DNA of 64,000 bases from Octopus vulgaris (Eukaryota). Below are positions 6,194 to 60,256 of this stretch, in pieces; the first letter of the stretch is position 1; each line of letters starts with the position of its first letter. The stretch lies in contig OX597823.1 of the NCBI GenBank assembly GCA_951406725.2, positions 33,604,001 to 33,668,000 on the forward strand. The letters run 5' to 3'. A model generated the notes under the pieces. It was not told where the DNA came from, did not search any database, and was given only the letters and a program-made list of their open reading frames with translations. The position numbers were made by a program, and so were the translations under genes.

Positions 6194-6470
6194 TCTCTCT
6201 CTCTCACGTTTTATTTATCTTATTCCCACTTTGTCTTCTTGCTCCCTCTCTCGCTCACACATTTATTCTCTTCATCTTCCATAACAAAACAACAAATTAC
6301 ACAGTGATGGCTTGTTGCCAACTTAATGTGGCAGTCCCAGGAAAAGGAAGAATGCTTCTGCTATTTAGCCCCAAGGAACACCGTTTCTAGTTGGCTACTT
6401 GACACAAGCGTTCTGTGTCCTTAAGTTTTCAAACAGGGGAGATAAACACCTCCCCAACAAACTCAACAGT

Positions 6471-6509
6471 CAGAGACTAGTTTCAGAGTGGTTGCTCTTC
6501 ATCAGTCTG
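6471..6509 (-). ncRNA. Intact minimal type-I hammerhead ribozyme
   Basis: Minus strand: caga-CTGATGA-agag caacca ctct-GAAA-ctag-TC-tctg. Complete core, palindromic stem III ACTAGT, GUC cleavage triplet. Confidence 0.85.
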
Positions 6510-6533
6510 GCGTAGCTTGGCTTTGCTAGCTGA

Positions 6534-7050
6534 ATTTTTTATTAAGACAATAATGTCACATATAGATGATACAGCACAGAACACATACAAATGAAGTTCA
6601 TGCAAGTTTGAATGAACCTTATTTAAAAAATTTTAATGAACAGATGAATTTTATATTATATAGTCTTTTTTTTCCCCTTTTGGGGAGGGGATTATGTCCA
6701 GTTGCCTAAAAGGCCTAGTGGCTACCCCTTACCTATTTTTTCCTCCCAATGCAGAGTAAATAGGGTTACTAGCACCTACCTTTCTTAACACAGCCATCCA
6801 TCTTTCCTCAAACACACTTCGTGACAGTATTCTCTTCTCCAGCCCTGTCTTGCTCTTCAGGGCCAGAGATGAAGGATTCCGTCACAAGTCCTTGCATTCT
6901 AGTCTTCCACACACATTCTTTCAGTACGGCATCTGTACAGAAAAAACATGCCTCACCTTCCTTCGCGAGTCCAGTTGGTGGTACAATCTTTATTATAGAT
7001 TCAGCCGATAGCTGTACTCTTCCCCATGGCCTTGCGAGCTGTTGGTGCTA
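6534..7050 (-). mobile_element. Degraded 3' fragment of an L1/Tx1-like LINE
   Basis: Minus-strand translation GRVQLSAESIIKIVPP...KECVWKTRMQGL...FEERW aligns with the 9134-9751 ORF (GRVGLSAESIVNIVTPP...KECIWWTRLKGL...FKKRW). AATAAA at the 3' end. Confidence 0.75.
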
Positions 7051-7324
7051 AATTGCTGTAGAAAACTTCAAATTCTATAAGTGAAATAAATTCACTGATC
7101 TACAAAATTAGAAATATTGCATTTCTAAATCTCTGAGAGAAAGTTATACAGTAGCAGCACGATAAAGTGATGGTTTGTTGCCTACTTAATGTGTCATCCC
7201 CAGGAAAGGGAAGAATGTTACTACTAATTAGCCCCAAGAAACACCGTTTCTAGTTGGCTCCGTGACACAAGTGTTCTGTGTCCTTTTTCTCCTATCCTCT
7301 TATTTTAGGCTGTCTTTTTGATAC

Positions 7325-55200: not shown

Positions 55201-57430
55201 CCACTGTCATCATTTGGGCAAATAGAGTTTACATTACATGGAATGATGTATATATATATATATGAGTGTGTGTGTGTGTGTGTGTGTGTTTACCTGCGTA
55301 CACACGTACACACTTTAAAACAACTGAAATAGATCTAAATAAGTTTCTATCCCAAGACTTAGAAGATATGCACTCAAGATGGCATGCAGTGGGTTTGAAC
55401 CGGAAACCCCTCTGTTTGGAAGCAAGCTACTTAAATATGCTGCCATGCTGGCTCCAATAGTTATAGACGATAAAATTCATTTAAAGTAATGAGACATTCC
55501 TTTAACTCTATTTCATAAGAATTTTATTAAATTTTTTAGTCTCCCACAGAATATTTGGAATAAAAACTGAAATGAAATTAGGATAAATGTTCATAAAATA
55601 TTATTTTGTTAAGCAAGAAATAGGAAAGAAAAGTTGAGAGATCAGGAGAATATTATTAAATTTATTTAAGCAGCCTTAGTATGGTTTGAGTAATGCAAAT
55701 TAATGACGAGGTATTTATTAACCTATGGGATATTAGAATTTAGTATAAAGTAATGAAAAGTTATAAGAAACAGGGGAGAAACATTCAGATGTCAGGGAAA
55801 TATCATTAAATATTATTAAATTTGTTTAGCTTACACTGGTTTATGTTGAAGGCAAAAAAAAGTTACGATCAATAACCATACAAGAGTACTTGTTCAAGCA
55901 GAATTATGAGAGAGAGGAAGGGTAGACCTTTAGACGTTGGACAAATATCATTAAATATTTGTAGCCCGTCTTAATGTTGGTGTAAAAACGAACAAATTGG
56001 AATAAATGGACATCTAAAAGTATTCATTAAAGTAGATGTTTAAAATTAAAGGAAGGAATTACATTAAATTATTGTGAAGCAGTTACTTTGTATGCATTTA
56101 AGCTTACGGAATTTTGCTAGGAGGAATATATGCATAAACTTCTGGAGAAGTAAGTTCTAAAAGATGTTCAGTTAATAAAAGCTGATTGCTCAGGTGATAA
56201 TAATATATACAACTGTGCATACATACAGGTAAAAGCATATGTGTGTGTTTGAAAGTGTGTGAATATGTGTGAATGTGTGTGTGTGTGTGTGTGTGTGTAT
56301 CCAAAAGAAATCTTTGTTTATGTGTCCGTTTATCCCAATATATCTACATACAAATTACAAATACAAAGATATATAATAATAAAGAGTGTTGTGGGGGAGG
56401 GGGCAAAGTTTAAATATAATCTGCTTTATATATCACCATCATCATCACCACCACCACCTTCATTTTAACGTCCCTGTTTGCATGCGTGCATGGGTCAGAC
56501 AGAATTTGTTGAGGCAGATTTCCTGAGGTCAGATGCTCTTCTTGTTGCCAAGCATCACCTATTTTCAAGCAAAGCAATGTTTCCTTGTGGCTGGGTTTGG
56601 TTCTACAAAATTTTGGTAAGAAATGACACTGCTTGTATGAGAGTGGCACTTGTTTACATCTGTTACACAAACTCAAGGCAAGGAGACAGCACACGCACAC
56701 ACTCATTTACGTAAGCGCATGCATGCACACACACACACACAGTTACATGCAATGGGCTTCTTTCAGTTTCTGTGTACTGAACTCACTCAAAAGGATGTGA
56801 AGTGGAGCTGAACCAGAGATTACTTGATCGGCAAGCAAGGTCCTCAACCACTTAGCTATACCTTGCCTTATCCATGCCAGCAACCATATATGTATAAACA
56901 TACACACACAGACACACACTCACACACACACACACACACACACACACACACACACACACACACACACACACACACACACATAGGGTAGCGAATATTCCCA
57001 GAAATATCACCACTAGTGGCCTAGTATGCTTAAATAGTCAATAGACAACATATTGTCAATATAAAATAGTGTACATTTAAACACAAAATAAAAACTTTTT
57101 CCTTTATTTGCTAAAGAAATTTGAAACCTAGGTATAACCGCAAAAAATAAGGTAAAAGTTTTATTTTTCATTCCCTTTGAAAATTGGTATCACATGTGGT
57201 TTTGGTCATTTTGACTTCTAGCATGTAAAAATTACCTGTTAAAGGTAGTTTTCTCTTGTGATTAATGTACACTATTTTATATTGAGTGTATATATGCATA
57301 TATATATATATATATATATATATATATAGGGCTTCTTTCAGTGTCCATCTACCAGATACACTCACAAGGCTTTGGTTGGCCTGAGGCTTTAGTAGAAGAC
57401 AACTGCCCTCTATTTAACCATCTCACATCA

Positions 57431-57476
57431 TCTCTGATGTGGGGATATCCCTAATATGCCAGAAACAGTTGTAAGA
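57431..57476 (+). ncRNA. Decayed type-I HHR (family of 32721)
   Basis: tct-CTGATGT-ggggatat...atatgcca-GAAA-cagttg-TA-aga. Confidence 0.5.
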
Positions 57477-59803
57477 CTAACTTTCTCTTTATGAATATAC
57501 TGAAAATTCCACACAGCCTTGGCTTTGTTGTCTCATTTTATTTAATATATATACCTGTATGTATGCATGTATGTATGTATGTATGAATATATATATATAT
57601 ATATATATATATATATATATATATATATATATATATATATATATATATATATATATATATATATATATATATATATATATATATATAGCAAGAGAGAGAG
57701 AGAGAGATAATTGTAGAGGGTACAATTATATATCTCTATATATGTATTTTACCCAAAAAGGTTTTCATACGCTGCCCACTGATAAAATTCATTAATTTTA
57801 ATGACTTTATCCTGTAATTATGATTATACACACACACACACACACACACACACGTATGTTATATTTGATGTATGGTATATAATGTATATTATAAATAAAA
57901 GATTTGATATAGTCATATTCATTTAAGTTGACCGTTGAAAGTAGCGATAACTGAAATTTCACACTCAACAGACATTCTTTGCGTGGCATTTCATTGAAAT
58001 GTCACCAGAAGATTGGTTGCAATAATGACAACTTTATAGAAAATGATGATGATGATGATATATACATATATACATACATACATGCATGCATACATACATA
58101 CATACATACATACATACATACATACATACATATATATATATATATACACACACACACACACACACACATACATATATATATATATATATATATATATATA
58201 TGTCTGTATGTATATATATATGTCTGTGCATATATATATATATATATATATATATATATATATATATATATATATATATATATATATGTCTCTGTATATA
58301 TATATATTCATATATGTCTGTTATATATGTATATATATATATATATATATATATATATATATATGTATATATATACACACATACATACACATATATATAT
58401 GTATGTTTGTATATATATGTATATATATATATATATATACATATATATATACACACATACATACACATATATATATTATATATATATATATATATATATA
58501 TATATATGTGTGTGTGTGTGTGTGTGTGTATGTATATATATATATATATATATATATATATATTTAAATGCACATATATGCAAATATTTGCACATGTATA
58601 CAGACTCATGTATATCTTATCTGTGTGTGTAACTATGTGATGACCGAAACATTGAAAAAGTGGAATATAAATCTTCATGTATATGTGTATATATGTATAC
58701 ATATATAACATATATATACATCTGTGTGTGTGTGTATGTCTATATACACACATTTGTATATACACATATGATCATTCCTATCATGATTTTGTGTCTACTG
58801 GCATCAGCTGGTTGGATCAACAGAATCTAACTTATTGGCAGACCCAGTCTCACTCTAATCTCTCAATTTTGCTGTGGTTTCTATGGCTGTTTGTCTTTCC
58901 TGCCATCATCCACTTTATATAATGTAACTGGGTACTTTTAGCATAGCACCTGCACTGGTGAGGTTGCCTTGTAACTTGTTAGACAAAAGTGGTCTTACAT
59001 CAAAGAGGAAGAGTAGGAGCAAAGGTGACAATTTTAGGTGAGGAATTTGAGAAGCAAAAGTAGGATTGGAAGAAAAGGTTGACTGTTGGCAGCAGGTGTT
59101 AGTGAAGAGACTAAAAGACAGTGTTGGAGAAGAGAGTGATAAAAGGGAAAGGGAAAGAATAGTGTCAGGGGTTTTTTAGTGTGTGTCAGAGAGTGGTATG
59201 GATGAGAGTAAAGTGGACCAAGTAATTTGGATTAACCCCTTAATATGTATGGGTAGGTAGGATAATTGGAGTGGTGGTGTCTTATTCTCCTTCCCATACT
59301 ATCTTGTAAACCACTCACCCACCTACCCCCTTCTACTTAGCTTGTGCCATGTGGTTCCACCTAGACTCTCATCACCTTTATCTCTTGCAGTTTCTACTGA
59401 TTATTATTTCTTTCTCTCTCTCACTTTTTCCCCTTCTAGATGTGATCATCCATGCAGATCCCTCTCAGGAACCTACTTGTCCCTGCCTCATAGTATTTCC
59501 CTCATCCCTTAGCATGAAGCTGCACCCACATCTCCCATAGGATTTCTATCCCTGCAAACTGCAGGGTAACCTCACTAGTGCAGGTGGAATGATAAAAACA
59601 CTTAGTCTATGCTGTAAAGGGATTGGCTTTAGGAGGGACATCTTACCATAAAAACCATGCTGAAGCAGAGGCTTGATGCAATCTTTGCAGCCATTGCATC
59701 TGGTCAAACTCTACAACTCACGACAGCATATAATGTAGATGTTAAATGATTATGATGCACTATATATATATATATATATATATATATATATATATATATA
59801 TAT

Positions 59804-60256
59804 AAGCAATAGTAAATCTCTGGACGAGGTATAAACAGTAACTGCACGACAATGTGAAGTATATTTGTCACTTAAATGTGGCTAACCACTAAGGGTGGAT
59901 GTTACTGTAGCTTGTAGCCCCAGCTGGCTATTGACACACTTTCTGTGCCCTATCGGTATTTGCAAAGGGAAGCCATCCTTCCCATCGTTGACCTGACGCG
60001 ATACGCACAGACCCGGGTTTCTGGATATTTACCCATCATCAGCACATGACAATCACCGGTCTTCGATGTGAAGGGGTCCCAATGCAAATACATATATCCT
60101 TTTTCCAGTGACTTTTCGTCACTGATCTCGAAAAAGTGTAAACAAGCAATAATAAATCTCTGAATGAGGTATAAACATTTAGATGTCAAATATATTTCAC
60201 ATTGTCGTGCAATTACTGTTTATACCTTCACATTGTCGTGCAGTTACTGTTTATAA
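59804..60256 (-). mobile_element. Family-A-related HHR cassette: 340-bp monomer plus short inverted arm, after (TA)n
   Basis: Direct repeat at 59804 and 60144. HHR at 60004-60048 (CTGATGA-tgg gtaaatat cca-GAAA-cccggg-TC). Inverted, partly duplicated arm at 60177-60256. Confidence 0.75.

Follow-up and report, generated by a model that had tools for sequence, protein, structure and literature searches.

A family of mobile elements in the genome of Octopus vulgaris, here termed family A, consists of non-coding units of ~350 nt, ranging over 343-364 nt, that bear a type I hammerhead (HHR) motif and fall into five subfamilies, a to e. Some 35,000 insertions are estimated genome-wide. Family A is a non-LTR retrozyme, an element of a known kind, distinguished by a fold not described before and by a LINE dedicated to it. 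The reading favoured here, to which a probability of about 70% is given, is that this non-coding HHR repeat has the insertion anatomy of a Penelope-like element (PLE) and that its covarying fold is likely the docking or start site for a Penelope-type reverse transcriptase (RT) supplied in trans.

Units of family A and copies in the window

Intact monomers measure 335-356 nt in subfamily a, 336-353 nt in b, 354-382 nt (mostly 361) in c, 353-368 nt (mostly 364) in d and 336-355 nt in e. Their GC content is 0.385-0.452, below the 50% expected as an upper limit of a non-LTR retrozyme, and the longest ATG frame has 111 aa in d and 33-78 aa in each of the other subfamilies. The unit of a non-LTR retrozyme is given as ~170-400 nt, of GC <50% and non-coding, and family A agrees on each count. 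Partial head-to-tail tandems are common and one locus (L007) has two complete units; no long head-to-tail arrays were found among the family A loci examined. A search of Rfam with the window (the whole 64,000-nt stretch analysed) gave no match at the gathering score, and at E up to 1 the five loci gave only microsatellite-driven matches and no ribozyme family. The d unit and further variants are covered by assembled contigs of four runs (run type guessed), which have no bearing on strand, level or circles. Literature searches found no paper on an octopus retrozyme, but Repbase, subscription journals and a curated O. vulgaris repeat library (PMC13282606) may already contain these families.

The initial annotation described five related loci, and these were confirmed as homologous, with an HHR motif on the minus strand of the window. 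In what follows E1 and E2 are the two fixed 3' ends of insertions, H1-H8 are hairpins and P0 is a long-range helix. The loci at 6300 and 7167 are a single subfamily a element interrupted by the end of a LINE. Its 3' half (6301-6532, minus strand) contains the HHR, the 3' arm of the rod, H5, H6, the first arm of P0 (6354-6361), H7 and H8, with E1 near 6301-6304. The type I HHR motif (6475-6505, minus) comprises CUGAUGA (6505-6499), stem II, GAAA and a palindromic stem III, ACUAGU, and cleavage is predicted after C6475 from the HHR consensus. The 5' part of the element (7027-7286, minus) contains H5-H8 (7286-7167), the P0 arms (7217-7224 and 7148-7155), AGAGATTT/H1 (7127-7134), H2 (7109-7127), H3 (7080-7096) and the 5' arm of the rod. 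Between the two lies the 5'-truncated 3' end of a putative L1/Tx1-type LINE (6533-7026, minus), with the end of ORF2, the 3' UTR and AATAAA (6543-6538), its sense being that of the HHR; the flanking target-site duplication has a 15-nt 3' copy (6518-6532, minus) and a 5' copy (7027-7041, minus) identical to it at 13/15 positions.

The subfamily b copy (12206-12406, minus) is 5'-truncated within the HHR, has lost the core and terminates at E1. Subfamily c (16347-16884) lies tail-to-tail in (TA)n, with a left arm on the minus strand (16347-16697) that ends at E1 and has the HHR core UUGAUAA (16546-16540), and a right arm on the plus strand (16704-16884) that ends at E2. Subfamily d, the youngest, is also tail-to-tail in (TA)n (18401-19150); its left arm (18401-18927, minus) spans 1.5 units and ends at E1, its right arm (18923-19150, plus) ends at E2, the two overlap by 5 nt at the joint, and the P0 arms are at 18448-18456 and 18736-18744. 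At the subfamily e locus (59804-60258) a minus-strand unit (60177-59804) stops at E2 in (TA)n and is accompanied by short inverted pieces (60175-60258); the HHR core is at 60042-60036, the P0 arms at 59901-59908 and 59835-59842, and H3 at 60106-60124. The window copies are damaged: d has an 11-nt deletion in stem II of the HHR, e is without the inner H6 stem and b is cut inside the HHR. The earlier estimate of monomers of about 346, 355, 353 and 340 nt was corrected to the range of 335-382 nt given above by subfamily.

Insertion anatomy

In all five subfamilies insertions have two fixed 3' ends on the HHR strand, 57-60 nt apart (about 45-50 nt in e), and variable 5' ends. Among 129 loci there were 68 two-ended insertions, 58 of which paired E1 with E2 and 10 of which had one irregular end, while none paired E1 with E1 or E2 with E2. 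The arms, which reach 857 nt, are tail-to-tail, the targets are often (TA)n and the duplications are of 10-14 bp, longer than the 4 bp that duplications of non-LTR retrozymes exceed. Overlaps of at least 2 nt were found at 15/22 inversion joints. Two 3' ends that define a tail, together with an inverted 5'-truncated copy, are features of non-autonomous PLEs. The polarity and pairing of the fixed ends indicate that the HHR strand is likely the template. Subfamily b lies mostly outside microsatellites, so that a single driver may not explain every subfamily; duplications of at least 11 nt occurred in 10/21 of its non-microsatellite insertions compared with 7/420 control pairs. In c, d, e and a the two arms of one insertion diverged only slightly less than arms of different insertions, and in b equally, a comparison of no discriminating power.

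The hammerhead motif

At most loci the main copy has the type I HHR core, stem II and palindromic stem III; the search pattern missed 11/25 copies of a, 3/25 of b, 3/25 of c, 3/30 of d and 3/25 of e. The 3-8 pair of the core is kept, as C-G in a, b, d and e and as U-A in c, a variant known from PLEs (PMC4209133). Stem III is palindromic in every subfamily, each with its own sequence. There was no pile-up of 5' truncations at the predicted cleavage site (4/167, compared with 2.5 expected) and the genomic copies therefore give no sign of cleavage or circles.

A LINE lineage within family A

A LINE lineage was found at one and the same position, 27 nt upstream of the HHR core, for 32 of the 34 readable 3' ends among 38 loci (four being unreadable) and in three subfamilies, a one-target share far above the 20% of flanks used by Kojima to define target specificity. 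Family A is present on both sides of the LINE, with a 13-16-nt duplication and differing 5' truncation points, in the window, at L291 and at L306, and on the 5' side only at L310. The domains of a longer copy, L309 (PF03372, PF00078, PF13966 and PF00098), indicate an ORF2 with APE endonuclease, RT and zinc finger and an ORF1 with a zinc knuckle, and the closest solved protein is human L1 ORF2p (E 2e-60); L309 is itself inserted in another LINE copy and its 3' part has ~73-81% DNA identity to the retrozyme-linked copies. The lineage is thus probably of L1/Tx1 type, the Tx1 label being based on the order of the domains and on the preference for one target.

Target-specific Tx1-clade LINEs (Tx1L in Tx1D, Tx1-Mar in Mariner-N4_AMi and Keno in U2; Kojima 2015, PMC4494074) have the same ORF1 and ORF2 domains and likewise occupy a fixed site in another repeat, with a 13-16-nt duplication and tandem copies split by the target. 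The octopus lineage differs from these examples in that its target is a hammerhead retrozyme, entered at a homologous site in three diverged subfamilies. Literature searches found no Tx1 element in a hammerhead repeat; subscription journals and Repbase may hold one, and since a figure legend in the same paper lists unnamed satellites among Tx1 targets, a Repbase precedent for a retrozyme-targeting LINE is possible. If none exists, a hammerhead retrozyme joins the known targets of sequence-specific LINEs.

The covarying fold

The initial annotation proposed that the helices covary, and across 23 diverse natural copies they did so. Changes on both sides were seen at 16 of 28 helix pairs, drawn from about 8-10 related lineages rather than from independent events, and the covariation score over the 28 pairs was reached by 0/500 shuffles, a control that related sequences can beat. 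The best covarying helix was P0, which straddles E1; 6/9 of its pairs changed on both sides and RNAalifold recovered it unaided in two alignments. Among the helices already listed in the initial annotation, tagcc/ggcta and its quoted inner stems are in the sequence and changed on both sides at 2/4 and 4/6 pairs, respectively; GACACA/TGTGTC is present; and the cagtga/tcactg hairpin has a 5-nt loop in all five subfamilies, although it lies at 7080-7096 and not at 7060. The helix described as tggcag...ctgc(c/t)a failed: 60.9% of its cells paired on the HHR strand, 323/500 shuffles reached its score and, when it was read on the opposite strand, 105/138 cells would pair with the two sides varying independently. 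Its bases instead form the longer-range P0, which had been missed, and the LINE and the rule of two ends had likewise escaped notice. Some hairpins must be dispensable, since subfamily d has lost H7 and subfamily e H2.

Function of the fold

Three functions had been suggested for a conserved cis-acting element in a retrozyme-like replicon, namely RT recognition, a promoter and a second catalytic motif. The retrozyme-like nature and the conserved fold have held up, no evidence of a second catalytic motif was found, there being no Rfam match, and RT recognition fits best since the two fixed ends lie within the P0 junction and at the foot of H2. P0 and its neighbours, which bracket both insertion ends, likely form an RT docking site. 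It is unlikely, but the most probable of the other explanations, that the same retrozyme keeps its hairpins because they compact or stabilise the RNA or serve its transcription (as an internal promoter like that of PLE pseudo-LTRs), with an RT that needs only short end sequences. On either strand, whole monomers did fold much more stably than their shuffled versions (z -3.5 to -10.3), extensive self-pairing of retrozyme circles has been described (PMC7229834), and H5 and H3 conserve sequence as well as pairing; yet the positions of E1 and E2 with respect to P0, H8 and H2 are constant even as the sequence at E1 varies among subfamilies, and it is the helix straddling E1 that covaries best. An action of the fold in the cDNA or antisense RNA, e.g. 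as hairpins used by the endonuclease or in a second-strand step, is less probable still. The helices are mostly Watson-Crick and could form on either strand, and the folding energy of the domain favours the opposite strand in 3/5 subfamilies, where the folds use more wobble pairs (23 compared with 14). The earlier hint of such a role from G-U pairs rested partly on the helix that does not covary, however, and the G-U cells of the covarying helices lean to the HHR strand, 43 compared with 28; the G-U counts and the folding energy point different ways. The H3 loop occurs in both orientations within e (14 and 11 copies), as might be expected of such a role, but this may be one inherited event; apparent flips in d vanished with an orientation-aware pattern (38/38 in one orientation).

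That the stems are a by-product of template switching, which perfects inverted repeats, rather than of selection is improbable. Inversion joints and the loop flip of e do show switches within stems, but the P0 arms are ~65 nt apart with two other hairpins between them and nevertheless covary, and the subfamilies agree in the order of their helices and the lengths of their loops. Least probable of all is that family A belongs to the L1/Tx1-type LINE as its 3' end and moves, in the manner of a SINE, by means of that LINE. Nearly all readable LINE 3' ends do run into the family A site, but the copies with family A on both sides already contradict this explanation, the LINE stopping there at its own AATAAA and within a duplication, and free family A copies end at E1 or E2 without poly(A).

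Comparison with retrozymes and PLEs

The metazoan non-LTR retrozymes include mussel repeats of 350-390 bp (Cervera and de la Pena 2020, PMC7229834; Li et al. bioRxiv 10.64898/2026.07.22.740005). They resemble family A in the type I HHR, the monomer of 340-365 nt, GC <50%, the lack of a shared coding frame, head-to-tail units and duplications >4 bp, with a PLE proposed as driver; as far as the accessible parts of these reports go, they mention neither fixed E1/E2 ends nor a covarying fold of several helices. Family A differs in that the loci examined are dispersed tail-to-tail insertions of up to ~2.4 units per arm, not long arrays, and in that no sequence link to a PLE pseudo-LTR was found.

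Studies of PLEs (PAc/Poseidon, PMC11167929; Neptune/Hydra, Craig et al. 2021, PMC8557442) described two ends defining a tail, an inverted 5'-truncated copy, partial tandems, AT-rich or (TA)n targets and an HHR upstream of the ends, all as in family A. Frangieh et al. (2024, PMC11167929) found that reverse transcription by a PLE begins at two internal sites, by which the tail is defined, and extends both target strands, and predicted a dimer. Family A has a longer tail (the E1-E2 spacing above, compared with 30-40 nt in PLEs) and lacks the RT and GIY-YIG endonuclease ORF of an autonomous PLE. The strict one-of-each pairing of ends was counted in family A, whereas in the PLE papers the tail is often at one end.

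Proposed mechanism and significance

Transcription of head-to-tail units on the HHR strand would give multimers, or circles where self-cleavage is followed by ligation. The covariation indicates that the unit takes the form of a long rod with the HHR at its tip, together with hairpins H1-H8, in which P0 would close a small junction (H7, H8, E1) and lead into H1 and H2 (E2). A PLE protein, probably a dimer, would bind the P0 region of the RNA and nick both strands of an AT-rich target ~10-14 bp apart, with one cDNA primed at E1 and the other at E2. The genomic pattern shows both cDNAs extending past the cleavage site, in many cases through more than a single unit, and joined tail-to-tail, mostly at short overlaps; it also shows the L1/Tx1-type LINE lineage at its one fixed site in the rod, and some composites of LINE and retrozyme have the same two-end anatomy. 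More tentatively, and at somewhat less than even odds, there may be a three-tier system in which a PLE twin-primes the structured retrozyme at two fixed RNA sites and a Tx1-type LINE has specialised upstream of the HHR, diversifying with the subfamilies, its transcript trimmed by the HHR and the composite riding on the PLE machinery.

How a PLE RT recognises its RNA, and why tails occur at one end, are open questions that family A addresses, in vitro work having covered one PLE. With its many subfamilies and tens of thousands of copies, family A maps by natural covariation what may be the recognition site, and the sharp rule that each insertion has one E1 and one E2 predicts a dimer priming both target strands. 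Both the recognition site and the end rule are testable with a 190-nt RNA.

Search for an autonomous partner

A GIY-YIG search, longer stretches, a Neptune protein search, tail comparison and covariance-model scans yielded no autonomous partner. No pseudo-LTR sharing family A sequence was found beside the ORFs at 30 GIY-YIG loci or in 20 longer stretches, which make up a small part of the 6,136 candidates from a first look, and among 130 family A loci there was no attached Neptune-like coding sequence, two matches having lain in flanks. In the Neptune-type elements that were checked, neither the profile nor the covariance model of family A had a match in the terminal repeat; a faint likeness of the Neptune 3' end to the first P0 arm, seen by eye only, was not accepted. 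The same genome does contain an active Neptune-type RT/GIY-YIG family with the polarity, (TA)n target and two-end pattern of family A, its tail being 37 nt compared with 57-60 nt.

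Copies, subfamilies and class

Family A, the ~350-nt non-coding repeat with a hammerhead (HHR) motif, is a real and abundant element of a known kind. The initial annotation had regarded five loci of the window as related, and they proved homologous to one another, with the hammerhead on the minus strand in each; genome searches made each of them the representative of its own subfamily (a-e). The assembly searched comprised 2.8 Gb in 227 contigs and gave first-look candidates of 2,140 for a, 2,497 for b, 2,877 for c, 1,989 for d and 3,861 for e, with 40 scored per subfamily. A profile search of 80 evenly spaced 10-kb stretches found 10 insertions, with no hits in reversed controls, which scales to ~35,000 insertions genome-wide (Poisson range 17,000-64,000). 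Intact units were mostly 343-364 nt (period obtained from 70 of 130 loci). Mean identity within subfamilies, in 6-12 selected copies each, was 0.944 in c, 0.923 in b, 0.878 in e and 0.861 in a, and at 0.985 in d it marks that subfamily as recent. A covariance model picked up extra diverged members in L259 and L249 (L-numbers are loci of the same assembly outside the window).

At least six more diverged subfamilies were seen (L046 683-1077, L009 2788-2977, L027, L289, L295 7755-7944, L306, L259 7784-8264 and L249 776-995). Antisense to the HHR, the d monomer alone has an ATG-initiated frame that reaches 111 aa, likely by chance. Elsewhere in the window, a 248-nt unit is duplicated in tandem at 61182-61678 (95% identical).

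By its sequence features family A is a non-LTR retrozyme, the class as described in PMC7229834; such elements have been argued to stem from the pseudo-LTRs of Penelope-like elements (PLEs) (bioRxiv 10.64898/2026.07.22.740005). The repeats paper on O. vulgaris reports active Penelope-like and L1-Tx1 families, with ribozymes unmentioned in its main text (PMC13282606). No earlier description of the fold, the strict end rule or the LINE target was found in the literature searched, and what is added here is a candidate recognition fold open to test, a two-end rule backed by counts and a LINE that has specialised on a retrozyme.

Hammerhead motif

The motif is type I. Subfamilies a, b and e share the core CUGAUGA, d has CCGAUGA and c has UUGAUAA, the U3-A8 covariant of PLE ribozymes (PMC4209133). 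Stem III is palindromic in every subfamily, its sequence differing between them, a build that has been tied to cleavage as dimers (PMC4209133). Stem I extends into a long rod in the predicted folds of a-d, and the motif is partly lost in the window copies of b and d. A second repeat family with a hammerhead motif, adjoining (TAA)n runs and with a 14-15-nt insert in stem II, lies at window 26410 (-), 48630 (+) and 50363 (+) and in the flanks of L061 and L091; it is probably another PLE end. A third short hammerhead-like motif was seen at window 4728 (-), 4752 (+) and 62127 (+) and in L135, the 4728/4752 pair being inverted and surrounded by microsatellites.

Insertion ends and targets

Insertion anatomy was read in 129 loci (130 minus one duplicate), in which the 3' ends on the HHR strand cluster at two places. 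E1 lies inside the junction of the long-range helix P0, ~10-14 nt past helix H8, and E2 is 57-60 nt beyond E1 (~45-50 in e), at the base of H2. Insertions with two outward ends paired E1 with E2 in 58 of 68 cases and had one irregular end in the other 10, the same type never occurring twice (0/68); in this count L046 and L048 are apparently one duplicated locus and the E1 of L128 extends ~17 nt into the tail, the stretch between E1 and E2. Comparison of truncation points with the predicted cleavage site found scattered 5' ends and no pile-up there. Many d copies have an arm longer than one unit plus tail, and the template is therefore taken to be a multimer or circle. Target duplications are ~10-14 bp; c and d prefer (TA)n targets, and two-ended b copies are found outside microsatellites in 21 of 22 cases. 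At L004 ~1380-1500 a c end directly adjoins a d insertion with a short (TA)n run between, one target having been used repeatedly.

RNA fold

The order on the HHR strand is P0 arm, H1 (containing AGAGATTT), H2, H3 (cagtga), the rod with the HHR, H5 (GACACA), H6 (tagcc), P0 arm, H7 and H8. P0 was recovered unaided by RNAalifold in two alignments, A2 (17 copies) and A3 (23 stretches chosen from 28 clusters of the 129). Across P0, H6, H7 and H8, 87.4% of 634 cells were paired, against 29-55% in slid controls, and 16 of 28 pairs changed on both sides. This covariation is strong evidence, short of a formal test because the structure was drawn from the same sequences and the lineages are related. H1, H2, H3 and H5 were assessed from alignments and folds, outside the 28-pair count. 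H7 is missing from d, yet present in its relative L289, and e is without H2. A tggcag helix proposed in the initial annotation showed no covariation and rivals P0 and H8 for the same bases. The annotation also took G-U pairs as a hint that the fold may matter in the antisense RNA or the cDNA; neither G-U counts nor folding energies fix the strand. H3 of e (window 60106-60124) has a 5-nt loop found in both orientations, in 14 and 11 copies, which may mark a single sub-lineage.

Comparison with Penelope-like elements

The insertion anatomy agrees with that described for PLEs (PMC8557442), and the two fixed ends resemble the two internal start sites reported for PAc; these are likewise downstream of the HHR, and in PAc uncleaved RNA was the main substrate (PMC11167929). 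Family A behaves as a PLE does, without being an autonomous one. The same genome holds a young PLE family with an intact RT/GIY-YIG frame of 781 residues, many copies being 98-99% identical; it lies in (TA)n, has a tail of 37 nt and contains a UUGAUAA motif. From its cysteine linker we take it to be Neptune-type. Its age and target agree with those of subfamily d; among the genome's Neptune-type elements checked, the terminal repeat gave no match to family A. Copies were seen at L161 ~860-5670 and L162-L176, with an additional frame upstream of the 781-aa frame, and the two inverted cases, L170 and L172, likewise have a tail at one end and none at the other.

A LINE inside the retrozyme

Between loci 6300 and 7167, the halves of the a copy, lie 494 nt from the end of a LINE that encodes APE, RT and zinc-finger domains and whose matches include an Argonauta sequence. 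With a query containing only ~4-6 nt of family A, 38 distinct loci were examined, and the 3' end continued into the family A site in 32, did not in two (L307, L309) and was interrupted in four. Three of the 32 (L267, L301 and L303, the latter two apparently duplicated) retain the 15-nt target alone. Among subfamily a loci found by a family A query, 5 of 25 had an AATAAA-type end at the LINE site. The site is homologous across a, b and the further subfamily k. The window copy, L291 and L306 have family A on either side of the LINE, with a duplication; L310 has it on the upstream side, and L272 has tandem LINEs with the target between. Known Tx1 targets include transposons, snRNA genes, microsatellites and satellites (PMC4494074; PMC3747384).

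The four copies linked to k group in a single clade (support 0.986, 290 nt), which fits either specialisation or the amplification of one composite. Composites of LINE and retrozyme in tail-to-tail arrangement are seen at L284 and at L276, where each arm has a LINE end, and many of the 32 ends may therefore be hitch-hikers rather than independent insertions. L309 ~1-9900 holds nested L1/Tx1-type LINEs, the 3' end of a near-complete copy entering another LINE copy, not family A. Open frames of 287 aa at window 9134-9997 (-), resembling by eye an L1/Tx1 zinc-finger end, and of 366 aa at 52129-53229 (-) are each the apparent 3' end of another LINE protein.
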